A program made the translations under genes and the position numbers. From assembly GCA_001873215.1 (NCBI GenBank), contig MNYS01000009.1:67654-131653 (forward strand): a stretch of 64,000 bases of DNA, given 5' to 3'. This document shows, in pieces, positions 3,138 to 63,369 of this stretch; the first letter of the stretch is position 1, and each line of letters begins with the position of its first letter. Source of the stretch: Candidatus Levybacteria bacterium CG2_30_37_29. Lineage in GTDB: Bacteria > Patescibacteriota > Microgenomatia > Levybacterales > GWA1-39-11. Under the pieces are notes generated by a model. It was not told the origin of the DNA. It saw only the letters and a program-made list of their open reading frames with translations, and did no database searches.

Positions 3138-5618
3138 ATGAAAATAGGATTTTTTACAGACGGATTTCTTCCCCAGCCAAATGGAGTCGCAACATCTGTT
3201 TTTTCAACCGCCAGAGAGCTTGAAAAAAAAGGCCACGAAGTTTTTGTTGTTGCGCCGAAATACCCCGGCTATAAAGACGAGTTGAATGTTTTTCGCCTGA
3301 CCTCAATAAAGGTTATGAAAAGACCGGAGTTCCGTCTGGCCCTCCATCTACCGGACAAGCCCTTTAGAAAGCTATTGCGCCTTGATTTTGATATAATCCA
3401 TGCCCATTCGCCCGGCCCTGTTGCTTTACTGGGATGGGAAATTGCAAAAGCCAAAGATGTTCCTTTTATTTCCACATATCATACTCTTTGGAACAAATAC
3501 ACGCACTATGTTTTAAAAGGGAAAGTTATTCGCCCTAAAATGGTAGAACAGGCAACCCGCCTTTTTGGAAATAGGTGTGATTATCTTATTGCGCCCACAG
3601 AAAAAGTTAAAAATGAGCTCGTAAGATATGGTATTAAGAGACCAGTAGAAATTGTTCCAACGGGCGTTGATGTGCAAAAATTTGGAGTGTCAAAAAAAGG
3701 GTATTTTTATGAAAAGTTTAAAACCTCCAAAAACGAAAGAATAGCGCTGTGTGTGGTAAGACTCGGAAAAGAAAAATCTGTTGATTTTGTTCTGCGCGCT
3801 TTTAAAAAAATTTTAAAAAAATCTCCAAACACCACGCTTTTTTTAGTTGGAGAAGGGGTTGAGAAAAAAAATCTTTTAAAGCTTGCAAAAAAAATAGGGA
3901 TAGGAAATAAAACGATTTTTACAGGGTTTATTGAGCATGATATTCTGCCTAGGGCTTATGCGGACGCAGATGTTTTTTTGTTTGCTTCGCAAACCGAGAC
4001 TCAAGGAATGGTTATCCTTGAAGCATTTGCATCAGGACTTCCTGTTGTTGCGGTAGATGATGATGCTCTACGCGGCGTGGTTCTGGATGGGGAAAACGGA
4101 TTTTTGGTTGCAAAAGACGAAGAACTTTTTGCGCAAAAGGCTCTTGACGTTTTAGAAAACCCCATGCTTCGCAAAAAACTATCTTTGTGCGCAAAACAAA
4201 CAGCAAAAGAACACTCTGTTTTTCATACAACAGGGATTCTCGAAGCTCTATATAAAGACGTTCTAACAGAAAGAAGCAGAAAAAGCATACAAAAACTTAT
4301 GAATACAAATACCGCCCGAGAGCAACTATATGTTGTGTTGCTTTCTTTTTGGGTTACGATATTTATTGTTAGAATTGCAACATTTTTATTGTATGCGCCA
4401 AAAGGCCCCTACCCCCTTATAGGACTTTTTAATAATTTTTTTACGCATGCCACAATTGGTTTTGTTCTTGTTGCTTTATCTCTTGTTACGTCTTTTAAAA
4501 AAAAGGAATTGCCTCTTTTTGCCCTTCTTTTATTTGGCGTAGGAATAGCCCTTATTTTTGACGAACTTTGGGTATTGGCAACGGGAGGAGCAGCTACGAT
4601 AGTAGATTATTGGGCCAGAGGAAACATGTTGGTAATTGTTTTGGCGGGAGCATTGCCTGCTCTTTTTGTAAAATATATCAAAAAAAACAGGCCCCAGTTT
4701 TTCTTTGGACATCAAAGCCTTGAGCACAGAAACCCCCAAGCCCCAAAAATATCGGTTGTTGTCCCCGCATATAATGAAGAGGAATTTATAGTAAGAACCA
4801 TAAAAAGTCTTGTAAACCAGACACGCAAAGATTTTGAACTAATTGTTGTTGATAACGCATCAACCGACAACACGGGGCTGGTCGCTGCGCAATATGGGGC
4901 AAGAGTTATAAGAGAAGAAAAAAAGGGGGTTGCAAACGCCAGACAGACTGGTTTTATGGCGGCAAAAGGAGAAATTATATTAACAACAGATGCGGACACT
5001 GTTGTTCCGCAGGATTGGATTGAAAAAATTATACCCCATTTTAAAGACGAAAATGTCGCGGCCTTCGGAGGAATTAATAGGCTTTATTCAGGCCCCGTTA
5101 CGGCCCGCGCCGGCTCACGCTATCTTTCAACCCTTTTTTGGGTGGTAGATAAATTTTTATCAGGAGGATGGAATCTTTTAGGGTCAAACCTTTCAGTAAG
5201 AAAATCCTCCTTTTTGGCAATTGGCGGATTTAATACTGCGCTGACCCTGGGTGAAGACGTAGACCTCTCCCAGCGTATTAAAAAAGTCGGAAAAGTTATT
5301 TTGGACCCAAATTTTCTTGTTTTTTCATCCGGAAGAAGATTTAGAAGCGGTCTTATTGTTGGGGTTTTAACATATGCTCCAAGCTGGTTTGCCAGGGTAG
5401 TTTTTAAAAAGGATAAGTTTTTAACTTTTCCCACAATTAGAGACGAGCATTCACTTATTGGAAGATTTACTTTTGTTCCTCTCCTTTTTTGTGTAGTTTT
5501 TCTTGCCACCCTTTTTTATGTGTCTAATCCTAGTGTTTTTCGCGCGCGGGAAATAAGATTTTTGCAAAAAAGCGCTGCTACTTTACAAGAATTTTTTGAT
5601 AAAACACAAAGCAAATAG
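3138..5618 (+). CDS. fusion glycosyltransferase: N-terminal GT1/GT4 domain, central multi-TM segment, C-terminal GT2 GtrB/Ppm-like polyprenyl-phosphate sugar synthase domain with C-terminal TM
   Basis: 826 aa. N-terminus MKIGFFTDGFLPQPNGVATS... (GT4 fold) with the EX7E-like region. Middle hydrophobic block around 4300-4720. C-terminus KISVVVPAYNEEEFI...VVDNASTDNTG is a GT2 DXD-type domain followed by TM helices as in GtrB/Dpm1. Confidence 0.65.
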   Translation: MKIGFFTDGFLPQPNGVATSVFSTARELEKKGHEVFVVAPKYPGYKDELNVFRLTSIKVMKRPEFRLALHLPDKPFRKLLRLDFDIIHAHSPGPVALLGWEIAKAKDVPFISTYHTLWNKYTHYVLKGKVIRPKMVEQATRLFGNRCDYLIAPTEKVKNELVRYGIKRPVEIVPTGVDVQKFGVSKKGYFYEKFKTSKNERIALCVVRLGKEKSVDFVLRAFKKILKKSPNTTLFLVGEGVEKKNLLKLAKKIGIGNKTIFTGFIEHDILPRAYADADVFLFASQTETQGMVILEAFASGLPVVAVDDDALRGVVLDGENGFLVAKDEELFAQKALDVLENPMLRKKLSLCAKQTAKEHSVFHTTGILEALYKDVLTERSRKSIQKLMNTNTAREQLYVVLLSFWVTIFIVRIATFLLYAPKGPYPLIGLFNNFFTHATIGFVLVALSLVTSFKKKELPLFALLLFGVGIALIFDELWVLATGGAATIVDYWARGNMLVIVLAGALPALFVKYIKKNRPQFFFGHQSLEHRNPQAPKISVVVPAYNEEEFIVRTIKSLVNQTRKDFELIVVDNASTDNTGLVAAQYGARVIREEKKGVANARQTGFMAAKGEIILTTDADTVVPQDWIEKIIPHFKDENVAAFGGINRLYSGPVTARAGSRYLSTLFWVVDKFLSGGWNLLGSNLSVRKSSFLAIGGFNTALTLGEDVDLSQRIKKVGKVILDPNFLVFSSGRRFRSGLIVGVLTYAPSWFARVVFKKDKFLTFPTIRDEHSLIGRFTFVPLLFCVVFLATLFYVSNPSVFRAREIRFLQKSAATLQEFFDKTQSK

Positions 5619-9193: not shown

Positions 9194-11059
9194 ATGAGAA
9201 GAAAAACATTTCAGAAAATAAGAATAATTGCCGGCAATAAAAAGAAAACTAGATCTTTAGGTGCTTTTTCTTGTAATAAAAAAATCTATCTGTTTTTTCA
9301 GTTGTCTTCCGATTCACATTTTCAATTTCACGTTGCAACTAGTGTAGATGGCTTTTCTTTCGAGCTTGAAGAACATGATTGTTGCATAGAAAAAGGCGAA
9401 GTAACAAAAGAAGATATTACATTATGTTCCGACTTTAGCATTTTGGAACATGCAGGGCATTTTTTGCTGATGTATGTTCGAAAAGAAAATAAAAAATCGG
9501 TTATTGAAAAAGCTTGGTCCAAAGACTTATTTTCCTGGTCGTATGAAGGAAACATGATTTCTCTTAATCAGAAAGGGATTATTGTGCCAAGCTATGAATA
9601 TAAAAGAAAAAGCGTTCTGTATTCTTCAAATGTATCAATTTTTGCTTACTTTTCAAAGGATTTGATTCATTGGGAAAAAGAAGAAAAAAAACTATTGACC
9701 CCAAGAGATAATTTTTTTGATTCCGGAGAACTTATTGTAGAGCGTGTATTAAATTCCGAGAAAGGAATTTTACTTATATATAATTCAAAAGTTAAAGAAA
9801 CAGCCTTTACGGGGATGGCATTATTTGATAACGATGACCCTACTCGTCTTCTTTGGCAAAGCGCAGAGCCTATCTGGAGTCAGCCGCAAGAATGGAAAGG
9901 AAAAGAAGTACTCCTTGTTGGCTCAATCTTACATAATGGAAGCATTATCTCTTATTGGCAGGTGGAAAACGAAGGAATATATGCAGCAGCTTACGCGGTG
10001 TATAAAGTTTCTGACGGTCATACATCAAAAGATATTTCTTTGAGGCTTAAACGCGTAGGCAATAATCCGTTAATTTCTCCAAACAGTAAAAATGTATGGG
10101 AGTCCTTCAATACATTTAATCCTGCCGCAACATATGACGGCGATAAAGTACATATTTTATATAGGGCGCAAGGTTATGATTATGTTTCGGCGCTTGGATA
10201 TGCAATGAGCCGGGACGGAATTCATATAGATGAGCGTTTGGAGCAGCCTGTTTATATTCCTTCGCAGTCATTTGAGAACATTAACACCACAAAAGTATTT
10301 CAGGTTTCCGCCCAGTATGTTTCTGGAGGTGGATATGGGGGATGTGAAGATCCCCGAATTACACGTATTGATAACCGGTATTATTTGACATACGTTGCGT
10401 TTGATGGAATAAATCCTCCAAGAATTGCGCTTACCTCAATCTCAGCTTACGATTTTTTAAACAGGCGATGGTTATGGGAGCGGCCGGTTTTAATTTCTCC
10501 TCCGGGCATTGTAGATAAGAGTGCCGTTATTTTTCCTGAAAAAATAAACGGAAAATATGTAATTATGCATAGAATTTATCCCGATATTTTAATAGATTTT
10601 GTTGACAACCTAAATTTTGACGGAACGTTTTGGCTCAAAGGTGAATATAAAATCTCTCCTAGGCCCGACAAATGGGACAGTCGTAAAATCGGCGCCGGCG
10701 CCCCTCCTCTTAAAACAAAATATGGCTGGTTGCTTATTTATCAGTCGGTTGGAGAGCAAGATCCAGGGAGATACAAAATCGGAGCAATGTTATTAGACCT
10801 TTTAGATCCGACAAAAGTTCTTTATCGCAGTCAATCTCCTATTCTAGAACCAGAAGAGACTTATGAAAACGACGGTTTTAAATCCGGCGTTATTTATCCT
10901 TGTGGCGCGGTTATTATTGATGATACGCTCTATGTATATTATGGTGGAGCGGATTCATATGTGTGTGTTGCAACTGCAAAGCTTGAAGACTTTTTGACTG
11001 AACTTCGATACTCAGAAGTAGCAAGGCTTACAAAGCCTATTGTGGAAAAAATACTTTAA
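9194..11059 (+). CDS. tandem-domain GH130-family (DUF377) glycoside hydrolase/phosphorylase-like protein, with a divergent N-terminal domain
   Basis: 621 aa. The C-terminal domain has GCEDPRITRIDNRYYLTYVAFDG and FPEKINGKYVIMHRI motifs typical of GH130. The N-terminal domain is GH130-like but lacks the CEDPRI motif. Confidence 0.5.
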   Translation: MRRKTFQKIRIIAGNKKKTRSLGAFSCNKKIYLFFQLSSDSHFQFHVATSVDGFSFELEEHDCCIEKGEVTKEDITLCSDFSILEHAGHFLLMYVRKENKKSVIEKAWSKDLFSWSYEGNMISLNQKGIIVPSYEYKRKSVLYSSNVSIFAYFSKDLIHWEKEEKKLLTPRDNFFDSGELIVERVLNSEKGILLIYNSKVKETAFTGMALFDNDDPTRLLWQSAEPIWSQPQEWKGKEVLLVGSILHNGSIISYWQVENEGIYAAAYAVYKVSDGHTSKDISLRLKRVGNNPLISPNSKNVWESFNTFNPAATYDGDKVHILYRAQGYDYVSALGYAMSRDGIHIDERLEQPVYIPSQSFENINTTKVFQVSAQYVSGGGYGGCEDPRITRIDNRYYLTYVAFDGINPPRIALTSISAYDFLNRRWLWERPVLISPPGIVDKSAVIFPEKINGKYVIMHRIYPDILIDFVDNLNFDGTFWLKGEYKISPRPDKWDSRKIGAGAPPLKTKYGWLLIYQSVGEQDPGRYKIGAMLLDLLDPTKVLYRSQSPILEPEETYENDGFKSGVIYPCGAVIIDDTLYVYYGGADSYVCVATAKLEDFLTELRYSEVARLTKPIVEKIL

Positions 11060-11061
11060 CA

Positions 11062-13005
11062 ATGATTAATATTAAAAGAGATAGTCATAACCCAATTCTA
11101 AAACCTGATTCAAAAAGCCCCTGGGAGTCACAAGCAGTATTTAATGGAAGCGTTATAAAAGAAGACTTATACCATATGGTTTATAGAGCTCTCTCCGACA
11201 CGCAAAATTATGAAGGTAGGCAATTACAGCTTTCAACAATTGGATATGCCAAAAGCGCAGACGGTGTGATTTTTGACAACCGAAAGCAATTTATAAAACC
11301 GGAAATGGATTGGGAAAAATTCGGATGCGAAGATCCGCGAATCACAAAAATAGATGGAGAATATTTTGTTTTTTATACGGCATTATCCGATTATCCGTTT
11401 TATCCTGCGGCAATTAAAATCGGATTAGCGGTATTTTCTGATTTTACCAAACCTGTTGAAAAACATTTAGTGACACCATTTAACTCGAAGGCAATGACTC
11501 TTTTCCCTGAAAAAATAAACGGAAAGTACGCGGCTCTTATTACGGTTAATACTGATATTCCGCCCGCCCGTATATGCCTTGCTCTTTTTGACAAAAAAGA
11601 GGATATATGGTCTCAATCATATTGGAATAGATGGTATCAAAATCTGGCGGATCACATAATTCATTTACGGCGTATGAATTCCGATCAATTAGAGGTTGGC
11701 GCGACTCCTCTTCTTACGCAATATGGATGGCTTTTTATATATGCTCATATTCAACATTATAATAATTCTCAACATAAGATATTTGGAATAGAGGCGGTAT
11801 TGCTTGATTATGATAATCCGCAAAAAATTCTTGAAAGGATTGATTTTCCGATCATGATTCCTGAAAAGGAATATGAGGTAAAAGGTAACGTTCCAAATAT
11901 TGTTTTTCCTTCAGGGGCAACATTAGAAAATGATACCGTTTCACTCTATTACGGAGCTTCAGATTCGGTTTGTTGTCTTGCAACATTTTCGTTAAAAGAA
12001 CTTTTAAAAGAAATGCGGACAGATTCTTCTGTTGCAGTGAAAGCACAAAAACCTTTAGACACTCCGCTTTTTTTGCCTCTTCAATCTCATGAATGGGAAT
12101 CTAAAGCGGTATTAAATCCGGCAGCTTTCTACAATAAAGATACGATTTATTTGGTATATCGAGCTGTATCTTCAGACAACACCTCTGTTTTTGGATATGC
12201 TAGAAGCTTGGATGGAGTTTCGGTAGTTGGGCGGCGCGAAATGCCAATCTATGTTCCGCGAGCAGAATTTGAAATTAAAAAAAATCCCGGTGGAAATTCA
12301 GGGTGTGAAGATCCGCGAATTACGCAAATAGAAGACAGGCTTTATATGTGTTATACGGCCTATGACGGAGTCAATCCTCCCCGTGTAGCATTAACATCAA
12401 TTGCTGTTACGGATTTTCTCAACACTAATTTTAATTGGGTAGATCCTATTCTTATATCTCCACCCGGAATTGACGATAAAGACGCCGCTATTTTCCCCGA
12501 AAAAATAAAAGGGAAATATGTAATTATTCATAGAATACAAAATTCAATAGTGCTGGATTATGTTGAAAACCTAAATTTTACAGGGAAAAATTGGCTCAGA
12601 AGTATTTCGTATATTCCGCCACGCGGAGATTCATGGGACAGTGAAAAAATAGGCCTTTGTACTCCTCCTTTGAAAACAGCGGAAGGCTGGATACTTCTTT
12701 ACCACGGAGTTAGCAAGATAAGCCACGAATATCGTGTAGGAGCAATGCTTCTTGATTTAGAAGATCCGAGCAATGTTATTTCAAGAGCTCCATGGCCGAT
12801 TCTTGAGCCGGAATTACCGTTTGAGCGGGAAGGTATTGTTAAAAACGTTGTGTTTCCGTGCGGTGCGGTAGTAAAAGATGATACGCTTTTTATTTATTAC
12901 GGAGGGGCGGATAAGGTTGTATGTGTGGCAACAATTAAGCTTTCTTTATTATTAAATTATTTGCTTAGAGTGAAAAACAATAAGTTTTTATTGAGTTTAA
13001 AATAA
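11062..13005 (+). CDS. tandem-domain GH130-family glycoside hydrolase/phosphorylase-like protein (two GH130 domains)
   Basis: 647 aa. Two repeats each carry GCEDPRIT(K/Q)I... and FPEKI(N/K)GKY motifs. Paralog of the preceding gene. Confidence 0.55.
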   Translation: MINIKRDSHNPILKPDSKSPWESQAVFNGSVIKEDLYHMVYRALSDTQNYEGRQLQLSTIGYAKSADGVIFDNRKQFIKPEMDWEKFGCEDPRITKIDGEYFVFYTALSDYPFYPAAIKIGLAVFSDFTKPVEKHLVTPFNSKAMTLFPEKINGKYAALITVNTDIPPARICLALFDKKEDIWSQSYWNRWYQNLADHIIHLRRMNSDQLEVGATPLLTQYGWLFIYAHIQHYNNSQHKIFGIEAVLLDYDNPQKILERIDFPIMIPEKEYEVKGNVPNIVFPSGATLENDTVSLYYGASDSVCCLATFSLKELLKEMRTDSSVAVKAQKPLDTPLFLPLQSHEWESKAVLNPAAFYNKDTIYLVYRAVSSDNTSVFGYARSLDGVSVVGRREMPIYVPRAEFEIKKNPGGNSGCEDPRITQIEDRLYMCYTAYDGVNPPRVALTSIAVTDFLNTNFNWVDPILISPPGIDDKDAAIFPEKIKGKYVIIHRIQNSIVLDYVENLNFTGKNWLRSISYIPPRGDSWDSEKIGLCTPPLKTAEGWILLYHGVSKISHEYRVGAMLLDLEDPSNVISRAPWPILEPELPFEREGIVKNVVFPCGAVVKDDTLFIYYGGADKVVCVATIKLSLLLNYLLRVKNNKFLLSLK

Positions 13006-28815: not shown

Positions 28816-29907
28816 ATGGGTAATAATTTACGCGGTGTTTTGCGAGCACATTCTGTGAAAAAAGGGAAAACTGTTCTTCTTAGAATTGATACAGACGTTG
28901 ATTTTGTAGGCGGAAAAATTCTTGATGATACAAGACTAACTGCTTGTGACAAAACACTCTCTTATCTTTTGAAAAAAGGTGCGGATGTTATTCTTTTGGG
29001 GCATCTTGGAAGACCAACTGAAAGTCAAAAATCAAAAATCAAAAGTCAAAAGTACGCAGAAGAGTTTAGTTTGGAGCCGGTTGCCAAGTGGTTTGCAAAA
29101 CACTACAAGGGAATTGTTGAAAAAAGAATGATAGGTGAATTTGAAGGATGGGAAATAACTCCGCATCTCCATTTGCTCGAAAATCTCCGTTTTTTTTCAG
29201 GCGAGGAAGCAAACGATAAAGAATTTAGCCGGTCGCTTTCCATTTTGGGAGACTTTTATGTAAATGATGCGTTCGCCGTTTCTCACAGATCCCACGCAAG
29301 CATAGTGGGAATTGCAGAGCTTCTTCCGTCTTATGCCGGATTTCATTTAGAAAAAGAAATTGAAACATTAGGGAACATTTTAAAAGACCCAAAAAGACCG
29401 CTTACGGTACTTATTGGAGGTGCAAAAATTGAAACAAAATTGCCTCTTGTTGAGAAGATGCATAGAATAGCAGACTATGTGTTGGTTGGTGGAGAAATAG
29501 CCGAGCAGGACGCAATGCTTATAAAAGTACAGCACGAAAAAATAAATCCGCCTGCCGGCGGAAAAAAATCTGCGGTTCTGGTTGCCGATAATATATCAAG
29601 CGGCTTGGATATTACCGATAAAGACGCAGAAAATTTTATTCAAATTCTGGACATTTCAAAAACAATTGTTTGGAATGGGCCGGTTGGGAAAATGGGAGTA
29701 ACTGAAACTGAAAGAAATACTTTAAGAATTGCAAAGGCGGTTGCAAGCTCAAAAGCATACACAGTGGTAGGAGGCGGTGATACTCTTGCGCTACTAAAAG
29801 AGCATAATCTTCTTAATAAATTTTCATTTGTTTCAACAGGCGGCGGAGCAATGCTTGAATTTTTATCAGGTAAAGAACTCCCCGGAATCGAAGCGCTGAA
29901 AAAGTAG
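28816..29907 (+). CDS. pgk: phosphoglycerate kinase
   Basis: VLLRIDTDV...LLGHLGRP N-terminal motifs. The start was set at the internal Met to avoid overlap with the PBP gene. Ends ...ELPGIEALKK*. Confidence 0.88.
   Translation: MGNNLRGVLRAHSVKKGKTVLLRIDTDVDFVGGKILDDTRLTACDKTLSYLLKKGADVILLGHLGRPTESQKSKIKSQKYAEEFSLEPVAKWFAKHYKGIVEKRMIGEFEGWEITPHLHLLENLRFFSGEEANDKEFSRSLSILGDFYVNDAFAVSHRSHASIVGIAELLPSYAGFHLEKEIETLGNILKDPKRPLTVLIGGAKIETKLPLVEKMHRIADYVLVGGEIAEQDAMLIKVQHEKINPPAGGKKSAVLVADNISSGLDITDKDAENFIQILDISKTIVWNGPVGKMGVTETERNTLRIAKAVASSKAYTVVGGGDTLALLKEHNLLNKFSFVSTGGGAMLEFLSGKELPGIEALKK
29877..29902. repeat. direct repeat copy A (pgk 3' end, CTCCCCGGAATCGAAGCGCTGAAAA)
   Basis: Same 25-mer recurs at 30984-31008. 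A degenerate copy sits at 31161-31186. Confidence 0.8.
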
Positions 29908-29946
29908 TTTACAATCGTCTAAAAATCGTCTATAATACGGCTATCT

Positions 29947-30981
29947 ATGTTCCTTCCGCAATACAAAATAACTGACAAACTTTTAGCCAATATTAAACGC
30001 ATTAACACGTTAGTTTCCGAGCTTAATAATAAAAGGTTTCCTAGTGTTGTACTTTTAGATCTTGAAAGAACAGCCTGCGAAGTGTCTTCGTATGCTTCAA
30101 CCAGTATAGAAGGTAATCCACTACCACTAACCGAAGTCAAAAAGATTTTAAAGACGACGCCAATAAGCATTCGGGATAGTGAAAAAGAGGTGTTAAATTA
30201 CAACAAAGCTTTAGAAGATTTAAACACAAAGCTTAAGAAAGGCAATGTAAAGCTTTCGCTTGAGCTTATTTTACAAATTCAAAAACATGTTACCAGAGGG
30301 CTTCTTCCCTTTTTTGAAGTTGGCAGTTTTAGAGAAAAGCCAGTAGTTGTAAACGACCCCAAAACACGAAAGGTTGTATATTTGCCTCCTGATGTAAAAG
30401 ACGTAAAATCGCTTATGGAAAATCTTATAACGTTTGTCAAAAACAATAAGGAAAATATCGACCCGCTTATACTTGCCGGGGTATTCCATAAACAAATGGT
30501 AATTATTCATCCTTTCATGGATGGAAACGGTAGGACGACAAGGCTTGCTACAAAGGTGTTACTTTTTGAAATGGGGCTTGATACATTTAATCTTTTTAGT
30601 TTTGAAAATTACTACAACAATAATGTTGCTAATTATTTTCAGACAGTTGGGGAATTTGGAAACTATTATGATTTAGTTGATAAAATTGATTTTACTGTTT
30701 TTCTTGAATATTTTACGGATGGCATAATAGATGAACTTTTAAGGGTTAAAAAAATGCTTCCCGAAGTTTTGGCAACTCCGCAAAGCACCTTAAAACCGTA
30801 TCACGAGAAAGCAATGGAGTTTATCCGAGAGAATGGATTTATTACCGACCGTGATTATTCAAAAATTGTTGACAGGGCAAAAGCAACAAGAGCTCTTGAT
30901 TTTCAAAAGTTAATATCTTTAGGTTTAATTGAGAGAAAAGGGAAAGGAAGAGCAACGTATTACATACTAAAAACAAAGTAA
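29947..30981 (+). CDS. Fic-family protein (AMPylase/Doc-like) with C-terminal winged HTH
   Basis: 344 aa. Canonical Fic motif HPFMDGNGRTTRL. C-terminal KGKGRATYYILK wHTH-like. Confidence 0.85.
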   Translation: MFLPQYKITDKLLANIKRINTLVSELNNKRFPSVVLLDLERTACEVSSYASTSIEGNPLPLTEVKKILKTTPISIRDSEKEVLNYNKALEDLNTKLKKGNVKLSLELILQIQKHVTRGLLPFFEVGSFREKPVVVNDPKTRKVVYLPPDVKDVKSLMENLITFVKNNKENIDPLILAGVFHKQMVIIHPFMDGNGRTTRLATKVLLFEMGLDTFNLFSFENYYNNNVANYFQTVGEFGNYYDLVDKIDFTVFLEYFTDGIIDELLRVKKMLPEVLATPQSTLKPYHEKAMEFIRENGFITDRDYSKIVDRAKATRALDFQKLISLGLIERKGKGRATYYILKTK

Positions 30982-30982
30982 T

Positions 30983-31050
30983 CCTCCCCGGAATCGAAGC
31001 GCTGAAAAGATAATCACTTTATTTTTAGTTTTTCAAGCATGATTTCAAGG
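30983..31050. repeat. direct repeat copy B: degenerate duplicate of the pgk-3'-end/cmk-3'-end convergent junction
   Basis: Carries the pgk-end 25-mer plus ATAATCACTTTATTTTTAGTTTTTCAAG, a degenerate copy of the cmk-like gene 3' end. That part reads in reverse as ...LEKLKIK*, against the genuine ...LEKLKVK*. Confidence 0.75.
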
Positions 31051-31160
31051 GTTTCGCGCGCGAAAACTTTTTGAGAACACTTTTAAAATCCATGCGTAAT
31101 TGAGGTGGCACCTCAAATAGATTCGATTTTCTCCAGCTGCATTGATTTGCCGAAGTGACT

Positions 31161-31214
31161 CTTCTCAGAATCGAAGCGCTGAAAAAATAATCACTTTACT
31201 TTTAGCTTCTCAAG
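31161..31214. repeat. direct repeat copy C: junction copy attached to the genuine cmk 3' end
   Basis: CTTCTCAGAATCGAAGCGCTGAAAAAATAATCACTTTACTTTTAGCTTCTCAAGG. The pgk-end part is degenerate and the cmk-end part is genuine. Confidence 0.75.
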
Positions 31215-31775
31215 GGCGATTTGGAGAGAGTCTTCTTTGTTGTGGTCAAAGGAGTTAATTACCAAATCGTAGTATTTTTTATCAAAATAAACCCAATTAG
31301 GATCGTTACTTGCATAAAGCTTTCTCCATTTTTCCAAATCATTTTTTTCCCGTGTCAGAACCTCTTCTTTTGCATCTGCAACGCTTAACCCCTCACGGTT
31401 TATAAGTCTGTCAATTCTTATATCGACATGATCTTCTCCGTTCTCTTCACATACAACAAGAATTTTAAAAATATTATCAATTCCTTGTGCGTTGAATCCC
31501 GCAAGTTTTGTTTCAAGCACGATTTGTTTGTCTTCTCTAAGCATCTTTTCAAGTTGCTTATCAAACAAAACATCTTCCTCATCCGGTCTTAGATTTGTAT
31601 CTTTTGGGTCAAGTCCAAGTTTTCCCCGAACCGCTTCCCAAAAAATTTCCCCGCCCTCTACGTGTTTCCAATTAAGTTTTTGGGCAAGTAATTTTGCCAG
31701 AGTTGTTGAGCCGGATGCAATGCGACCGGAAATGGTAATAATACGAATATTATCAATCTTTTGAGGAATATCCAT
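31191..31775 (-). CDS. cmk: archaeal-type cytidylate kinase-like P-loop kinase
   Basis: 194 aa. ITISGRIASGSTTLAKLLAQKL...GEIF and YDLVINS match the CMP kinase 2 family. Confidence 0.55.
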   Translation of the reverse strand: MDIPQKIDNIRIITISGRIASGSTTLAKLLAQKLNWKHVEGGEIFWEAVRGKLGLDPKDTNLRPDEEDVLFDKQLEKMLREDKQIVLETKLAGFNAQGIDNIFKILVVCEENGEDHVDIRIDRLINREGLSVADAKEEVLTREKNDLEKWRKLYASNDPNWVYFDKKYYDLVINSFDHNKEDSLQIALEKLKVK

Positions 31776-39221: not shown

Positions 39222-41017
39222 TATCTGCTTGCGCGAAGAGCATTTATTATAACCGCTACATCAATTGTCTCTTGAAAAAAAGCGCCAAAAACCGGAGGAA
39301 TCATGCCGATTGATGCAAAAATCATTCCGCCAATACTTAAACCAATACCCCACCCTATGCTTTGAAGAGCAATGTGAATCGTTCGCTTGGAGATGTTAAT
39401 AGAATCAAGGACTAAAGAGAAATCGTTTCCCAGAAATACGATATCTGATGCTTCAGAGGCAGCTGTTTGTTCTTCGTTGCTAAAAACAATTCCAACATCA
39501 GACAAAGCCAAGGCCGGCGCATCGTTTATTCCGTCCCCCACCATTACAGTTATTTTGCCCTGTTTTCTTAATTCTTTTATTCCTTCCTGTTTGTCTTTTG
39601 GAGTACATTCTGCTTGAACAGTTACCTCTCCTCCCAAAACATCAGCTACTTTTTGTGCTGCCGCAATTTTGTCTCCTGTAAAAATATGGATACTTATTCC
39701 GAGCTTTTTTAGCTTATCAATTATTGTTTTTGATTCTTGTTTTATTTCATCCTCAAATTTAAATACCGCCAATTTATTTTTTCCTTCAGACAAGGCAATA
39801 GACATTCCTTCATCGCTATGTTCCTTTGCAAGCGTATATGTCTTGCCTTTTATTTTTCCGCTAATTCCTGATCCAACAACTTCTTTAATATTTGATGCCA
39901 TAAGAACATTCCCGTGTTTTTCTTTTGCAAAAATAACAATCGCTTTTGCAAGAGGATGAAGAGAATTTCTTTCTATTGCTTCTGAGATTCCAAGAATTTC
40001 TTTTTGGTCGTAGTCACTTGAATATGAAATATATTTTGTTAACTTAGGCTTACCAAGTGTAATTGTTCCTGTTTTATCAAAAATAAAAGTGTTTGCCCGC
40101 GATAAAATTTCAATACTCGCAAGTTTTTTTACAATAATTCTTCTTTTTGCTGCCGCGCTAACTCCTCCAAGAAGTGCTATGGGCGTTGCAAGAATAAGAG
40201 GACAAGGGGTTGCGATAACAAGAACTGCTAAAACATACTGCATGCTGTGTGAATTAAAATAAGCGAATACTGCAATAATAGCCGTAATCAGGGTAAAAAT
40301 CGTACTATACTTATCCGCAAGGCGCACAAGCGGGGCTTTTTCCTCCTGTGCCGACTTCACCAAATTTATAATTTTGTTATAAGTAGAGTTTTGTTGGGTT
40401 TTTGTAACTTTTATTACGATAGGATCTCCTATATTAATTGTTCCGCTTCTTATTTGGTCACCTTTTATTTTTTCCATCAAATAAGGTTCTCCTGTAAGTG
40501 AGGATTCGTCAGTTAATGCTGTTTCAGAAATCAATATTCCGTCAAGTCCAATTACTTCTCCTTTTCGGATAAATATTTCCTGTCCTATTTTTATATTTCC
40601 AATTTTCTCCTTTTTGTTGGCAATTCCTCCTTCCCATAAAACTATGTCGTTTGGAATTCTGTCAACAAGTTTTGTAAGACTTTTTTTTGCTTGTGCTACT
40701 CCATACTCTTCAAGGGTCCTTCCACTTGCAATCATTAATGCAATAATTGAAGCTACAAAATATTCATTGGTTACAACAGAGATAACTATCGCAAGAATAG
40801 CTATATAATCAAGGGCAAAGTGTTTTTTAAGAATTGAAATTGCTGTTTCTTGAAAAAGACGGTAACTTCCGAGAAATATTATAAATATAATTAATATATT
40901 TGAAATTATCTTCTCGCCTGCAAAATTTAGAACTAAAAAAACAATAATTCCAATAAAAACCAAAATTGGAATCCGGAAACTTTTAAAAAGATTATTGATA
41001 TTGTCGTTATTTTTCAT
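39218..41017 (-). CDS. P1B-type heavy-metal-translocating P-type ATPase (no N-terminal HMA domain)
   Basis: 599 aa. CPL (CPx) motif in a TM helix. DKTGTIT. GDGINDAPAL. Confidence 0.8.
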   Translation of the reverse strand: MKNNDNINNLFKSFRIPILVFIGIIVFLVLNFAGEKIISNILIIFIIFLGSYRLFQETAISILKKHFALDYIAILAIVISVVTNEYFVASIIALMIASGRTLEEYGVAQAKKSLTKLVDRIPNDIVLWEGGIANKKEKIGNIKIGQEIFIRKGEVIGLDGILISETALTDESSLTGEPYLMEKIKGDQIRSGTINIGDPIVIKVTKTQQNSTYNKIINLVKSAQEEKAPLVRLADKYSTIFTLITAIIAVFAYFNSHSMQYVLAVLVIATPCPLILATPIALLGGVSAAAKRRIIVKKLASIEILSRANTFIFDKTGTITLGKPKLTKYISYSSDYDQKEILGISEAIERNSLHPLAKAIVIFAKEKHGNVLMASNIKEVVGSGISGKIKGKTYTLAKEHSDEGMSIALSEGKNKLAVFKFEDEIKQESKTIIDKLKKLGISIHIFTGDKIAAAQKVADVLGGEVTVQAECTPKDKQEGIKELRKQGKITVMVGDGINDAPALALSDVGIVFSNEEQTAASEASDIVFLGNDFSLVLDSINISKRTIHIALQSIGWGIGLSIGGMIFASIGMIPPVFGAFFQETIDVAVIINALRASRY

Positions 41018-43792: not shown

Positions 43793-44224
43793 TTAAATTT
43801 TGTGGTCAAGAGCCAAGTTTACCATTCTGTCTGCTGCAAAATTTTTCTCTCGCGGAATGGCGTGATAAAAAATTTTTCCTTCTAATTTTTCCTCAAGACT
43901 TTTTATGGTAAAAAACAGACTTCTCAAATTCTCATTTTTTATTTTCCAAAGTCCACCCAATTGGGATGCGACAAGTTGTGAATCAAGAAAAAACTGTACG
44001 GTAATATTGTCTTTATCAACATTTTTTACAAGCCATTGGAGCGCAGCAACAACACCTGAATATTCCGCGACATTATTGGTATTTATTCCAATTCTTTTTC
44101 CTTCTTGGTAAATAATTTCGTTTTCCCCGTCTTGCACAACAAATCCATACGCCGCTTCTCCTGGGTTTCCCCGCGACCCGCCATCGGTAAATATAATAAA
44201 ATCCGGTTTGTTAGTTGAATTCAT
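43793..44224 (-). CDS. rnhA: ribonuclease HI
   Basis: 143 aa. FTDGGSRGNPGEAAYGFVV catalytic DxxG...E pattern. Confidence 0.85.
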   Translation of the reverse strand: MNSTNKPDFIIFTDGGSRGNPGEAAYGFVVQDGENEIIYQEGKRIGINTNNVAEYSGVVAALQWLVKNVDKDNITVQFFLDSQLVASQLGGLWKIKNENLRSLFFTIKSLEEKLEGKIFYHAIPREKNFAADRMVNLALDHKI

Positions 44225-45468
44225 ATATTTTTCGTCCTTTGTAATGCTAAATATACCACCATTCCGCTAAAAACAATTCCCTCACAAATAACTGTTATAA
44301 CAGATGCGGCAATATAAGAATAGTGGGGGATATAAAAAATGTTTAAGACAATATTTAAAAACAGTGAAAAAAGATAAAGAAAAATTAAAAACATTTTTTT
44401 GTTTTCTATAACAAGAACCCATTGTAAAATACTTGTTAAGAAAAAAAACGGAAGTGATAATGAAAGTATTCTAATTGGAAGAATTACATAAGAAAGCTCG
44501 GGTTTTAATACGGGTAGTAAGGGTGATAGAAAAAAAACAAAAAATATAAAAACAATCGAGATAAGAGTTAGTAGAAAAGAATAACGCTTAATATCCCGAT
44601 AGAAAAATGATGTAGATTTTTTTTCAAGAAGAAGAGGGTAAATGCTGTTTGCAAAAAAAGCAGGAATAGCAATAAGGAATTCAAAGATGCGATAGGAAAA
44701 TCCATAGATACCAATATCTCCTGTTGGTCTTAAAAATGACAAAATAACAGTGTCGGCTTTTGCATAAATCAAATTAAAAAGAAGAATTAATCCAAGAGGA
44801 GCAGAGGAAAAAAGAAGAGGTTTTGAAAATTTGAAAAAATTGTGTACCTTTTTTTTCACAGGAAATTTTTTCAAAACCGAAAAGAAAAGTAAAACACCGA
44901 ATAAAATTCCGGACATAACATAAGATAAAAGAATAATATAAATATTTTGTAAAAAGGTTCCGGCGAGGACAAAAGAAAGCAATGTTACAGATGTAATAAA
45001 TGAAGGAATAATTGATGTTTTGTAATTTTTTGTTTTCTGCTGAATTGCAGCAAATGAAATTGCAAGCCCTTGAGTAAAAAGAGTAAAAGAATAAATAAGT
45101 ATTCCAATTTTTTCAAACGGTGAAAATCCGATAGAAGATGCTGCGTTATAGGGAAGAACAATCGTTATAAGTCCTATGCAAATATATAAAATTAAAGAAA
45201 GCAAAAACCGTAACAAAATAAGATTTATAAAATTTTTTTCAATCTCCTCGCGTGTTTTTTGGATAAAAATTCCGTTAATTCCAAAATCAACCGCCAAGTA
45301 AAATAGTGATACAAAAGTTACAATTTTTGTAAAACTTCCAAAAAGTGAAATTCCAAGAAAATAGGAAATAAGAAGGGTTACGATTAAAGTTGAAAAACTT
45401 GATAAAAATCTCACGGTTAATTGAGAAATGGTGTTGGTAAAAATATTTCTTAGCCCGAGATTTTCCAT
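44221..45468 (-). CDS. Wzx-like (MOP superfamily) polysaccharide/oligosaccharide flippase
   Basis: 415 aa, about 12 TM helices. N-terminus MENLGLRNIFTNTISQ... typical of polysaccharide biosynthesis proteins. Confidence 0.5.
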   Translation of the reverse strand: MENLGLRNIFTNTISQLTVRFLSSFSTLIVTLLISYFLGISLFGSFTKIVTFVSLFYLAVDFGINGIFIQKTREEIEKNFINLILLRFLLSLILYICIGLITIVLPYNAASSIGFSPFEKIGILIYSFTLFTQGLAISFAAIQQKTKNYKTSIIPSFITSVTLLSFVLAGTFLQNIYIILLSYVMSGILFGVLLFFSVLKKFPVKKKVHNFFKFSKPLLFSSAPLGLILLFNLIYAKADTVILSFLRPTGDIGIYGFSYRIFEFLIAIPAFFANSIYPLLLEKKSTSFFYRDIKRYSFLLTLISIVFIFFVFFLSPLLPVLKPELSYVILPIRILSLSLPFFFLTSILQWVLVIENKKMFLIFLYLFSLFLNIVLNIFYIPHYSYIAASVITVICEGIVFSGMVVYLALQRTKNI

Positions 45469-45470
45469 AA
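45436..45470. repeat. direct repeat (flippase gene 5' end), copy 1
   Basis: GGTAAAAATATTTCTTAGCCCGAGATTTTCCATA. A near-identical copy (one mismatch) sits at 46234-46268. Confidence 0.8.
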
Positions 45471-45503
45471 TTTAGATAGTTATATAGATAAATTGGTGCA
45501 TAG

Positions 45504-45881
45504 TTATTTTCTGGTTTTTGTTATTTTATCATTAGAGATTAAAATCACTGAGTTTGCAATAACGCTTCTTTTAATTTTTGGAAGCTGTTTTTTACAAATG
45601 CTATTAATATGTTTAGGTGCGTTTGATCCTACCGTAATAACAACTATCCCTTTAGTTCCCTCTGCTCGCGCCGTAGTATAACCCAAAAAATCACGATCGA
45701 GAGTTATTAGTGTTTTGCCAAGTTTCTTTGCATGCTTTAAATGAGAAATGTCAGGTTTGTTTAAAAAATTATATTCCAAAGCATGTCTTATTGAATAGCC
45801 TAAAGATCGAAGATATAAAACGGTTGTAAAAGGGAAGCACTCATCAGCGTATATTTGTAGATCCGATTTCTTAGAGGGCAT
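45504..45881 (-). CDS. DUF5615-family PIN-like putative toxin
   Basis: 125 aa. LQIYADECFP...LITLDRDFLGY...GIVVI pattern of DUF5615. Overlaps the upstream DUF433 gene by 11 nt. Confidence 0.55.
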   Translation of the reverse strand: MPSKKSDLQIYADECFPFTTVLYLRSLGYSIRHALEYNFLNKPDISHLKHAKKLGKTLITLDRDFLGYTTARAEGTKGIVVITVGSNAPKHINSICKKQLPKIKRSVIANSVILISNDKITKTRK

Positions 45882-46062
45882 ACTGACCAGTGAATTCTCT
45901 GTTCTTTATTTCATCAAGTGCTTTTTTGATATTTTTTTCCTTGATCCAAGGATAAGAAGTAACAAAATCGGAAACGTTATATCCTTCTTTTAGATAATCA
46001 AGCAAGAAAGCTATTGGAATTTTACTTCCCGGAACCAGATTCTTTTTATTTACTGTTTTCAT
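45871..46062 (-). CDS. DUF433-family putative antitoxin
   Basis: 63 aa. VPGSKIPIAFLLDYLKEGYNVSDFVTSYPWI...KALDEI matches the DUF433 signature. Confidence 0.55.
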   Translation of the reverse strand: MKTVNKKNLVPGSKIPIAFLLDYLKEGYNVSDFVTSYPWIKEKNIKKALDEIKNREFTGQYAL

Positions 46063-46233
46063 ATGAAAATTATATCATATCTTGGATTATATTTCCTGTT
46101 TTGGCCGTGAATTGGGTAAAATTATCCCCTTGTAAGCTAGGTGAGTTGCCTCACGCAAGGCATGGAGCCTGCTTTCACTTATAAGGAGCCCATGTAATTA
46201 TATAATAAGCAATATAAAAAAACAAAGTCAAGG

Positions 46234-46268
46234 GGGTAAAAATATTTCTTAGCCCGAGATTCTCCATA
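46234..46268. repeat. direct repeat (flippase gene 5' end), copy 2 (relic)
   Basis: GGTAAAAATATTTCTTAGCCCGAGATTCTCCATA. Includes a relic ATGGAGAATCTCGGGCTAAG start identical to the flippase N-terminus. Confidence 0.8.
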
Positions 46269-46329
46269 TTGACGTAAATTGAATTATATCAGGAATTAGT
46301 TTGCGCGTTAAAGTTTTTTTCAACCAAAA

Positions 46330-46347
46330 TAGTATTTAAATCCCAGC
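46330..46347. repeat. 18-nt direct repeat flanking the GIY-YIG gene (left)
   Basis: TAGTATTTAAATCCCAGC. The right copy TAGTATTTAAATCCTAGC is at 46672-46689. Confidence 0.6.
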
Positions 46348-46357
46348 TGCAAAAAAA

Positions 46358-46633
46358 TTAATAGATTGCTCTGCAGTTTACAAGATCATCCTTTTGTTCA
46401 TGTGTCAATTTTTTCAATTCTTTTTCCCTAAGCATTGCAAAACTTCTTGTTTGGTATGGTTCAATATGGACAAATTTTACAGGTCTGCGAGTTTCAGTAT
46501 AGTTAGCACCGCGAAATTTACCAATACCGTTGTGTTCTTTTTCTCTCTCAACTATATTATCAGTTTGCCCGGTATAATAACTGCCATCTGAGCATTGGGC
46601 GAGATATACATAAAAGACAGGAGGACGAAGCAT
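46358..46633 (-). CDS. GIY-YIG nuclease family small protein (UPF0213/SLX1-like)
   Basis: 91 aa. VFYVYLAQCSDGSYYTGQTDNIVEREKEHN is a GIY-YIG motif with catalytic R/E/N. Confidence 0.75.
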   Translation of the reverse strand: MLRPPVFYVYLAQCSDGSYYTGQTDNIVEREKEHNGIGKFRGANYTETRRPVKFVHIEPYQTRSFAMLREKELKKLTHEQKDDLVNCRAIY

Positions 46634-46671
46634 AATAAAAGAGTAGCACAGAAAGTAGAGAAATGAAAATT

Positions 46672-46689
46672 AGTATTTAAATCCTAGCA
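46672..46689. repeat. 18-nt direct repeat flanking the GIY-YIG gene (right)
   Basis: 17/18 identical to 46330-46347. Confidence 0.6.
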
Positions 46690-46915
46690 GTGGTAAAATA
46701 ACACCAAATTTATATATGAAAATTCAGGATGATATTTTAAGTTATCGCGAGATGTGCGACGCGGAAAACGTACAGACGCTCCAGCGCGGTATGAATTATC
46801 GTTTAAACCCTCAGTATTCTGTGATTCTTATGTCTCAGAGATCAAATGCGCCCTGTTTTTTAATTTGACTTCTTGGCAACCTGTTTTCCCTAATTAGTAG
46901 TGATATACTGGAGCT

Positions 46916-62765: not shown

Positions 62766-62837
62766 GCTCTCGTAGTTCAACGGATAGAATGGGGGATTGC
62801 GGATCCCCTGATGCGGGTTCGATTCCCACCGGGAGCG
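62766..62837 (+). tRNA. tRNA-Arg (GCG)
   Basis: Manual fold: acceptor GCTCTCG/CGGGAGC (one G.U pair), anticodon loop TTGCGGA, T arm GCGGG-TTCGATT-CCCAC (one C.A mismatch). Paralog of the tRNA at 63258. Confidence 0.55.
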
Positions 62838-62895
62838 CAGCGTAAGAAATCAAAGATTTCAACGCTGCTGGAACGTAAAAATTTCAGAGGAAATT

Positions 62896-63162
62896 TTGTA
62901 CGTTCTGCCCATTATGTATTACGTATACATATTAAAAAGCGAAAAAGATAAAAGTTTATATACTGGTTATACAAAGGACTTAAAGAAAAGATACAAGGAG
63001 CATAATAACGGTTTGTCAAAAGCAACAAAATCAAGACGTCCATATCAATTAATATTTTATGAAGCATTTGTAAACATGAAAGATGCGAAGAAACGCGAAG
63101 AGTATTTAAAAAGCGGGTGGGGTTTAAGAAGTATTAAAAAGATGCTTGTTAATACCTTGTGA
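62896..63162 (+). CDS. GIY-YIG nuclease family small protein (second copy)
   Basis: 88 aa. YVYILKSEKDKSLYTGYTKDLKKRYKEHN GIY-YIG motif. Confidence 0.75.
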   Translation: MYVLPIMYYVYILKSEKDKSLYTGYTKDLKKRYKEHNNGLSKATKSRRPYQLIFYEAFVNMKDAKKREEYLKSGWGLRSIKKMLVNTL

Positions 63163-63167
63163 AATGT

Positions 63168-63252
63168 GGAGGGTTAGCCAAGTGGTTTACGGCGCAAGTT
63201 TCGAAAACTTGTTCCCTTTTGGGAAACACAGGTTCGAATCCTGTACCCTCCG
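63168..63252 (+). tRNA. tRNA-Ser (CGA)
   Basis: Acceptor GGAGGGT/ACCCTCC. Anticodon stem-loop CAAGT-TTCGAAA-ACTTG. Long variable arm TTCCCTTTTGGGAAAC. T arm ACAGG-TTCGAAT-CCTGT. Confidence 0.75.
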
Positions 63253-63257
63253 CAGAT

Positions 63258-63329
63258 GCCCTTGTAGTTCAATGGATAGAATGGGGGATTCCGGATCCCT
63301 TGATGTGGGTTCGATTCCCACCAAGGGCG
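63258..63329 (+). tRNA. tRNA-Arg (CCG)
   Basis: Acceptor GCCCTTG/CAAGGGC. Anticodon loop TTCCGGA. T arm GTGGG-TTCGATT-CCCAC. Confidence 0.75.
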
Positions 63330-63369
63330 CAGTATTGACACAGAGAATAAATCAACATAAAATGCTCCA

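Follow-up and report, generated by a model that had tools for sequence, protein, structure and literature searches.

The 64,000-nucleotide (nt) stretch analyzed here (the window) comes from Candidatus Levybacteria bacterium CG2_30_37_29, a member of the Patescibacteria (contig MNYS01000009.1, positions 67,654 to 131,653). It carries on its minus strand a predicted toxin-antitoxin (TA) gene pair, coding for a DUF433 and a DUF5615 protein, that lies between the two copies of a short direct repeat at the 5′ end of a gene for a polysaccharide/oligosaccharide flippase, an exporter of sugars for the cell surface (Table 1). On that strand, the 765 nt between the copies hold, in order, a 172-nt leader (put at 170 bp of non-coding sequence in the original prediction, which was made from the letters alone), the DUF433 gene, the DUF5615 gene, which overlaps it by 11 nt, and a 34-nt trailer.

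Table 1. Features of the DUF433/DUF5615 locus at the flippase start, in window coordinates.
Feature	Position	Strand	Basis or detail
Promoter-like site, presumed native flippase promoter	46283..46311	-	TTAACG, 17 nt, TATAAT, with TG before the -10; promoter scan, 10/12 matches
Relic copy of the flippase 5′ end	46235..46268	-	1 nt and codons 1-11; cut at the insert junction ACC/CCC
Cassette leader, non-coding, 172 nt	46063..46234	-	sequence reading and promoter scan
DUF433 (COG2442) gene, 63 aa, predicted DNA-binding antitoxin	45871..46062	-	PF04255
DUF5615 gene, 125 aa, PIN-like predicted nuclease toxin	45504..45881	-	PF18480
Cassette trailer, 34 nt	45470..45503	-	reaches from the toxin stop codon to the functional copy
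Functional repeat copy, the true flippase start	45436..45469	-	open reading frame and conserved motif
Flippase gene, Polysacc_synt, 415 aa, intact	44221..45468	-	PF01943, E 3e-18
GIY-YIG mini-cassette	46326..46699	-	91-aa gene 46358-46633 and its own direct repeat; PF01541, E 5.3e-13

The upstream copy of the repeat, GGTAAAAATATTTCTTAGCCCGAGATTCTCCATA, and the downstream copy, GGTAAAAATATTTCTTAGCCCGAGATTTTCCATA, form a single family in a repeat search of the window; they are identical at 33 of 34 positions and lie 799 nt apart from start to start. The duplication of 34 nt with one mismatch stands as predicted, except that its upstream copy begins at 46235 and not at 46234. With up to three mismatches allowed, the 34-mer occurs only these two times in the window, and 100 shuffles returned no match. 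Read on the minus strand, it comprises a single T before the start codon and the first 11 flippase codons (ATG, GAA or GAG, AAT, CTC, GGG, CTA, AGA, AAT, ATT, TTT and ACC, translating to MENLGLRNIFT), the sole mismatch being the synonymous GAA/GAG difference in codon 2. In strain L007 the repeat is perfect (34/34), which fits copies that arose identical or have since been homogenized. The identical arrangement is found in ten contigs from differing samples, assemblers and archives (JGI; ENA, with MEGAHIT k141 and SPAdes assemblies; NCBI GCA_002790535.1), and the agreement of these independent contigs rules out an assembly artifact. The G+C fraction of the insert, 0.32-0.35 against 0.27-0.29 for the flippase, lies within the normal range of the window, so that the insert is not marked by its composition.

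The downstream copy continues into the full 415-codon open reading frame (ORF) of the flippase, whose stop codon overlaps the start of an RNase H gene. Flippase homologs conserve the motif L-x-x-I-x-x-N-T-x-S-Q, and because this motif begins inside the 34-mer, the latter is the genuine coding 5′ end of the flippase. The ATG of the upstream copy opens a 30-codon ORF (46267-46175), in which 11 flippase codons are followed by 19 in unrelated insert sequence, and a tblastn search with the flippase N-terminus recovers 11 of 11 residues at 46267-46235. By its sequence, the upstream copy reads as a truncated gene start. The contrary possibility raised with the original prediction, namely that the upstream 34-mer is a conserved regulatory element found without the pair in relatives, finds no counterpart in the comparison: since the nearest flippase of a pair-less lineage is at most 54% identical (protein), the relatives provide no ground for regarding this copy as a common regulatory element.

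The two overlapping genes between the repeat copies belong to the families that had been proposed for them, both scoring above the curated Pfam thresholds. The DUF5615 protein matches PF18480 with an E-value of 1.4e-13 (51.1 bits against a cut-off of 23.8), other PIN models of Pfam staying below threshold for the same protein (PIN_10, 20.4 against 26.2; PIN, 17.1 against 23.6), and the DUF433 protein matches PF04255 with an E-value of 2.3e-6 (27.8 bits against 23.6). The antitoxin-like gene comes first, and this pairing is repeated at eight other loci. Across 15 homologs of the toxin, spanning 61-100% identity, residues D13, E14, D44, D62 and D64 are invariant. An AlphaFold2 model of the toxin shows an alternating beta/alpha fold (predicted local distance difference test score 82), with D13/E14 coming after strand 1 and D62/D64 after strand 3; going by this model, the invariant acidic residues would make up a PIN-like active site.

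Pairs of PIN and COG2442 (DUF433) proteins have been predicted to be type II TA systems, with DUF433 as the antitoxin of the PIN toxins (Makarova, Wolf and Koonin, 2009, PMC2701414); by analogy, the DUF433 protein of the window would bind DNA and autoregulate, and the DUF5615 protein would be the nuclease toxin. Like those pairs and the ones in the Synechocystis inventory (PMC4963859), the pair described here has its antitoxin and toxin genes in that order on one strand with overlapping ends, has both Pfam families above threshold, and belongs to a mobile and patchily distributed family; one of the Synechocystis pairs likewise sits in a tricistronic unit with a neighboring gene (PMC4963859). 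In contrast to the known pairs, its toxin comes from the DUF5615 branch of PIN-like domains, is 125 aa long and has no relative of solved structure in the PDB that is detectable by sequence, and its host is a Patescibacteria (candidate phyla radiation) genome. Neither PADLOC nor NCBIfam holds a model for the pair, and the literature searched reports no toxicity tests of members of this DUF5615-branch subfamily. The pair adds a member to a predicted TA family, the type of system being already known, and its function as a TA system is likewise predicted.

The promoter-like site TTAACG-17-TATAAT, the best of the region, stands 14 nt upstream of the relic ATG and about 800 nt from the flippase; in the simplest reading it is presumably the native flippase promoter, now parted from its gene. 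The leader has a -35/-10-like pair of its own, TTGACT-18-TATTAT (46231..46202), which begins 3 nt inside the junction, and an extended -10, TGATATAAT (46077-46069), which lies 6 nt before the DUF433 ATG and is kept in the sister lineage L030 as TGCTATAAT. The closeness of this extended -10 to the start codon suggests a leaderless or very short-leader mRNA for DUF433. A promoter scan of the trailer, which is homologous and diverged in L030, detected neither promoter-like nor terminator-like sites from the toxin stop to the flippase ATG; therefore, the flippase is most likely co-transcribed with the pair, and transcription of its operon through the pair probably has three candidate starts, the native promoter, TTGACT-18-TATTAT and TGATATAAT. 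An RNA gene or riboswitch was considered for the leader and discarded: the Rfam matches are at chance level and all lie outside it, there is no tRNA or tmRNA, and its folding z-scores are -1.4 and -0.8.

The evidence for an insertion comes from the relatives of the locus. L011, L012/13 and L014 retain the gene order LeuRS, usually a 523-aa protein, a slot of variable content, flippase, RNase H and DUF4012; in them, the slot contains a trehalase, a Pro_CA_2 protein or a TreT-type glycosyltransferase and never the DUF433/DUF5615 pair. In the window, the slot additionally holds an alpha/beta hydrolase gene, a 50-codon ORF and the 91-aa GIY-YIG gene with its own repeat. The closest relatives of the toxin (61-80% identity) occur in unrelated contexts, beside NYN, BrnT, DNA methylase or NucS genes or another PIN pair. 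The variable slot in the three relatives and the unrelated contexts of the homologous pairs support the earlier claim that a toxin-type module sits at a gene end with a duplication of host sequence. That it 'landed and duplicated' is one of several routes that could have led to the structure observed. The insert is present in all near-identical strains and in L030 (flippase 93% identical at the protein level); among the 96 flippase homologs, the best non-self match is 54% identical, and the nearest outside the species cluster reaches at most 54%. Exact-protein look-ups returned insert-bearing strains only, and a metagenome scan with the toxin alignment returned only eight loci. A flippase search of genome contigs for related loci yielded no relative, and searches with the toxin alignment yielded none among genome contigs and none among viral contigs.

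The cassette lacks recognizable machinery for mobility. There is no integrase or transposase in the insert or among the Pfam families recorded for the genes within about 10 kb either side, a range that applies to all such statements below, and the insert ends show no terminal inverted repeats (score 11 against a null median of 10). The repeat search found no inverted repeat in the 34-nt trailer that could be an attC-like imperfect palindrome. The leaders of eight homologous TA loci share no conserved termini, pairwise local alignments exceeding shuffles only for L019 and L034, a pair closely related anyway; the leader as the terminus of a conserved element was likewise dismissed, as blastn comparisons with all TA loci and the window gave chance matches only.

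An integron gene cassette and a transposon, insertion sequence (IS) or miniature inverted-repeat transposable element were both considered and rejected. The cassette does resemble those of integrons in being a unit of about 0.8 kb with one short operon and tight boundaries, in a slot with several small cassettes (the GIY-YIG one adjoining it), and TA cargo is typical of chromosomal integron arrays. It differs from them in having its own promoter, with no integrase nearby, no attC-like end and a flanking repeat that is host coding sequence, namely that of the flippase. Against a transposable element stand the absence of terminal inverted repeats and of a transposase, the 34-nt length of the duplication and the single-copy state of the cassette in the window. 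The IS30-family element IS1630 of Mycoplasma, as reported in the citation of Calcutt et al. (1999) in PMC2853133, offers a parallel in its unusually long target duplications of variable length; it is also said there to duplicate target inverted repeats, and at one of the homologous loci (L016) the duplicated target is itself a palindrome. Unlike IS1630, the cassette of the window has no transposase or terminal inverted repeats in or near it, and its target is not palindromic.

Flanking repeats recur at homologous loci. As a flank score we took the best ungapped direct match (match +1, mismatch -2) between two 600-nt flanks, one preceding the antitoxin gene and the other following the toxin gene. 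It is 31 for the window (the 34-nt repeat), 28 for L016 (49 nt, 86% identical), 16 each for L015 and L026, and 8-11 for the five other loci, against 7-15 for 72 mismatched-locus controls. Thus, four of the nine loci of this TA subfamily, the window included, have their own locus-specific flanking repeats of 16-49 nt. When a dummy cassette was slid over the window at 249 positions, scores of at least 16 were obtained only at a tandem paralog array, at the Fic cassette described below and at the TA cassette. The common layout is a repeat, a promoter or leader, one or more ORFs, a stop codon and the second repeat copy, each repeat differing in sequence and the downstream copy always lying 0-34 nt from the stop; from the stop to this copy there are 34 nt in the TA cassette of the window, 4 in L016, 8 in L015, 2 in the Fic cassette and 0 in the GIY-YIG cassette. 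In L016, the pair is flanked by a GC-rich imperfect palindrome of about 50-60 nt (4586-4634 and 5377-5425, the copies 86% identical), which may be a hairpin target that was duplicated or else a repeat element of small size; the unit there is 791 nt long against 799 nt in the window.

The Fic gene of the window (29947-30981, plus strand) is SoFic-like (PADLOC, E 7e-43), and the parallel originally drawn with it holds, as the gene stands between two identical 25-nt copies of the pgk 3′ end (29878-29902 and 30984-31008). Both the Fic insert and the TA insert begin 3-5 nt before the -35-like hexamer of a promoter-like site (29908-29936 and 46202-46231, respectively), the junctions and sites reading AGTAG/TTTACA-17-TATAAT in the former and CCC/TTGACT-18-TATTAT in the latter; therefore, the two units span almost exactly promoter to stop codon. 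The Fic locus also has a third, diverged junction copy (31153-31222, 81% identical to 30976-31045), in which a stretch resembling the pgk end accompanies the genuine 3′ end of a convergent cytidylate-kinase-like gene, and at about 31009-31045 lies a 35-nt fossil of another cytidylate-kinase-like gene end. Judged by sequence, these junction copies suggest two successive insertion or replacement events.

The closest precedent for such a structure comes from restriction-modification units, for which Kobayashi's group has described insertion with long target duplication (Furuta, Abe and Kobayashi, 2010, PMC2853133), a category that goes back, as cited there, to Nobusato et al. (2000, Gene 259:99). 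In these cases, which come mostly from species with natural competence, addiction-type gene units lie between long target duplications of variable length and no other mobile element is present; double-strand breakage by the restriction enzyme was proposed as a possible common driver (PMC2853133). Of the features that define the category (PMC2853133), the locus has a direct repeat of more than 30 bp (34 nt, 33/34, or 34/34 in L007) that is not dispersed, at least within the 64 kb searched, and no mobile-element genes or terminal inverted repeats in or beside the insert. Because its cargo is DUF433/DUF5615 and not a restriction-modification system, it resembles the process and falls outside the original cargo class.

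Further likenesses are the small addiction-type unit, the unique repeat overlapping a host gene end, the lack of a transposase, integrase or terminal inverted repeat, and the locus-specific length and sequence of the repeats. The organisms with the restriction-modification cases are thought to take up DNA naturally, as are Patescibacteria. Unlike in the published cases, the cargo is a TA pair, with SoFic-like and GIY-YIG genes nearby, so that the proposed double-strand-break activity is not obviously available; those cases are defined by a genome with an empty site, whereas the one in the window is inferred from repeat and synteny, and its repeat of 34 bp is among the shortest when set against the published lengths of about 46 to more than 400 bp. 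The locus thereby provides a further instance of a known, mechanistically unexplained mode of insertion, with a new class of cargo and in a new phylum.

On balance, though by no wide measure, we lean toward a recombinase-independent insertion, with long target duplication, of a self-contained 765-nt TA cassette into the start of the flippase gene. In such an event, the cassette, made up of its own promoter region, DUF433 and a translationally coupled DUF5615, would have entered 33 nt into the flippase coding sequence, and the 34-nt target segment, which starts 1 nt ahead of the ATG and runs through codon 11, would have been copied to both sides. The upstream copy would have been left at the native promoter as a dead stub, and the downstream copy would rebuild a complete flippase ORF. 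In so compact a genome, only insertions that duplicate a gene end would survive, which would account for the position of both the TA and the Fic inserts at gene termini. Because a PIN-like toxin offers no obvious equivalent of breakage by a restriction enzyme, a process of the host is the more likely source of the insertion, candidates being the illegitimate joining of transformed DNA or the repair of a staggered break. The 34-nt repeat would permit precise excision by homologous recombination, and yet the loss of a pair with a stable toxin and a labile antitoxin would be expected to be penalized, so that the cassette would become entrenched. On the flippase side, the 34-mer is directly followed by AACACCATTTCTC, and an empty-site junction would read native promoter, one 34-mer and AACACCATTTCTC; the trailer ends in CTATCTAAAT and the leader starts with CCCTTGACTTTG, and the junction of an excised circle would read CTATCTAAAT, the 34-mer and CCCTTGACTTTG.

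The sister lineage L030 is 88.8% identical to the window in an alignment of 7.9 kb, and since it carries the pair at the same position, the insertion predates their split and is hence old. Positions 1-400 of L030 correspond to 46077-45678 of the window, and its contig stops short of the relic, 15 nt (at most 16) ahead of the DUF433 ATG. The two are 98% identical over DUF433 and the 5′ half of DUF5615 and 88% identical from about 45678 on, a step that marks a recombination breakpoint inside the toxin gene. Synonymous divergence (dS) between them rises away from the cassette, from 0.08 for DUF433 and 0.17 for DUF5615 to 0.34 for the flippase, 0.43 for RNase H and 0.50 for DUF4012; therefore, part of the cassette has recently been exchanged by homologous recombination.

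Among strains otherwise about 99.9% identical, the few differences are concentrated exactly at the two borders of the insert. In L007, 12 of the 17 single-nucleotide polymorphisms (SNPs) found over 13 kb fall in 46262-46310, a stretch covering the native promoter-like site and relic codon 2 (11 of the 17 in 46269-46310). On the other side, the functional 34-mer with the next 30 or so codons (45346-45463) has 11 of the 12 differences of L031 and 14 of the 19 of L033. These densities amount to 12 changes in 49 nt and 11-14 in 118 nt, respectively; 10 of the 11 changes in L031 are synonymous, and its flippase differs by R7K only. Both patches have one end at the equivalent position of the repeat, the third base of codon 2, and from there extend away from the insert, as expected from recombination with alleles in which the insert has no homologous counterpart. 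The patches are short recombination tracts from diverged alleles, the borders of the insert acting in the population as tract boundaries. Because the patches abut both repeat copies and a breakpoint lies in the toxin gene, the cassette seems now to be spread and maintained by homologous recombination, it and its borders being shuffled with diverged alleles within the Levybacteria population. Elsewhere in the window, two strains (L004 and L009) differ in four consecutive bases at 40006-40009, CCAG (minus strand) becoming GTCA in contigs that are otherwise identical, a small multi-nucleotide polymorphism.

Several points weigh against the insertion that we favor. No nucleotide-level empty site, that is, an uninterrupted promoter-flippase junction, was found in any genome or contig: the relatives with at most 54% identity have the slot without the pair and yet are too diverged for such a site, so that the insertion is inferred from synteny and repeat. 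The published cases are restriction-modification systems whose DNA-breaking cargo is proposed to matter, and a PIN-like toxin is not known to cut DNA. Moreover, a Foldseek search of the PDB with the toxin gave no significant match, leaving the PIN-like fold without support from structure search. Five of the nine homologous TA loci lack a flanking repeat, and the palindromic element that forms the repeat of L016 is possibly of a different origin. Finally, the relic shows 0-1 changes, though a neutral 34-nt relic of such age should have several; its freshness would reflect either overwriting by recombination with the sequence of the functional copy or a constraint on the relic.

Among the alternatives, the one that survives best, although we deem it unlikely, is a homology-facilitated illegitimate recombination with donor DNA, probably acquired by transformation, that already carried leader, TA pair and flippase. 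One end would have recombined by homology inside the flippase operon and the other would have been joined illegitimately after codon 11 of the recipient flippase, so that the relic would be the gene start of the recipient and the working flippase 5′ end that of the donor, and no duplication by a staggered cut would be involved. Such an event would leave the same structure, and short tracts of diverged alleles are common at precisely the TA locus; the fossil junction of the Fic locus (30976-31045 against 31153-31222, 81%), where the pgk 3′ end is joined by a diverged 3′ end of the convergent cytidylate-kinase-like gene, looks like an imprecise replacement by a diverged allele. However, this course only defers the problem of how a donor acquired the pair in front of its flippase, needs identical or nearly identical 34-mers in donor and recipient, and by itself leaves the flanking repeats at independent TA loci in unrelated contexts unexplained.

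Site-specific integration of a miniature element is improbable. Here, the 34-mer would be the identity segment of attL and attR, and a circular cassette with a replacement gene start would have been integrated by a tyrosine or serine recombinase acting in trans. Integrative elements that enter gene ends and bring a replacement copy are established to give such near-perfect direct repeats (discussed in PMC2853133), and a XerC-like integrase gene lies a few kb away in the relative L012. Yet neither the cassette nor its surroundings contain an integrase, which the 799-nt unit is too small to encode, and since the repeats are specific to each TA locus (16-49 nt) and the leaders share no conserved sequence, there is no common attP. 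A tandem duplication of a flippase segment with the pair in between, followed by deletion of the upstream flippase down to its first 34 nt, is by a shade the less credible still. Deletion bias is strong in reduced genomes, and the window does have tandem paralog arrays at 10.3-12.6 kb; nevertheless, this course takes at least three steps where one suffices, the leader is without similarity to the flippase or the rest of the window, and tblastn with the N-terminal 60 residues of the flippase finds the 11-residue relic only.

Least probable of all is that the upstream 34-mer was kept for a function, as a promoter-proximal or translation-initiation region or a 30-codon leader peptide governing pair and flippase: its conservation at 33-34 of 34 positions, above the neutral expectation for a split with flanking dS of about 0.3-0.5, and its ATG retained behind a strong promoter-like site speak for it, but refreshing recombination can explain that conservation (the L007 patch spans the promoter into relic codon 2), its ORF past codon 11 enters unrelated cassette sequence, and, as it accounts for the maintenance of the copy and not for its origin, it is compatible with the insertion by target duplication proposed here.

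How small TA and defense modules without a recombinase move is still poorly understood, and long target duplication, a rarely documented route for selfish gene pairs that bring no transposase or integrase, has been a descriptive category without a mechanism since 2000. The locus extends this pattern to TA cargo and to a reduced, uncultivated Patescibacteria genome, in the scope of one clean case and a few supporting loci. It also illustrates that a selfish pair can lodge between a conserved cell-envelope operon and its promoter, and because of this position the expression of the host genes probably depends on the pair. We venture, as a conjecture that we would sooner expect to fail than to hold, that there is a general recombinase-free route in Patescibacteria, by which addiction and defense genes are inserted, promoter to stop, at gene ends with variable target duplications (16-49 nt or more); the DUF433/DUF5615 pairs, the SoFic-like gene and the GIY-YIG nuclease gene would be its examples. 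If this were true, the insertion process seen with restriction-modification systems would need no DNA-cutting cargo and would be a property of DNA uptake or repair in the host, or else of a stand-alone nuclease, for example the neighboring GIY-YIG protein, and the repeats would serve as handles for spread by homologous recombination and for reversible excision in populations.

The GIY-YIG mini-cassette directly adjoins the TA cassette and shares its divergent promoter region. The direct repeat of its stand-alone 91-aa gene (46326-46358 and 46667-46699) is 79% identical over 33 nt, with the downstream copy abutting the stop codon, and has a core, TAGTATTTAAATCCYAGC, that matches at 17 of 18 positions and occurs twice in the window against 0.01 occurrences expected by chance. 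Between this cassette and the hydrolase gene lies the 50-codon ORF (46716-46868, plus strand; MKIQDDILSYREMCDAENVQTLQRGMNYRLNPQYSVILMSQRSNAPCFLI), which has no match in Pfam, PADLOC or NCBIfam and may be a truncated gene start or a gene fragment. A second GIY-YIG paralog (62896-63162, plus strand), 37% identical to the first, stands between tRNA-Arg(GCG) and tRNA-Ser(CGA)/tRNA-Arg(CCG); the 76-nt, 88% repeat around it (62765 and 63257; region 62766-63330) was set aside as a target duplication, as it consists of the tRNA-Arg isoacceptors GCG and CCG. At 10333-12603, three tandem paralogous units follow one another at a spacing of about 980 nt, and share families of repeats that reach 88 nt at 80% identity.

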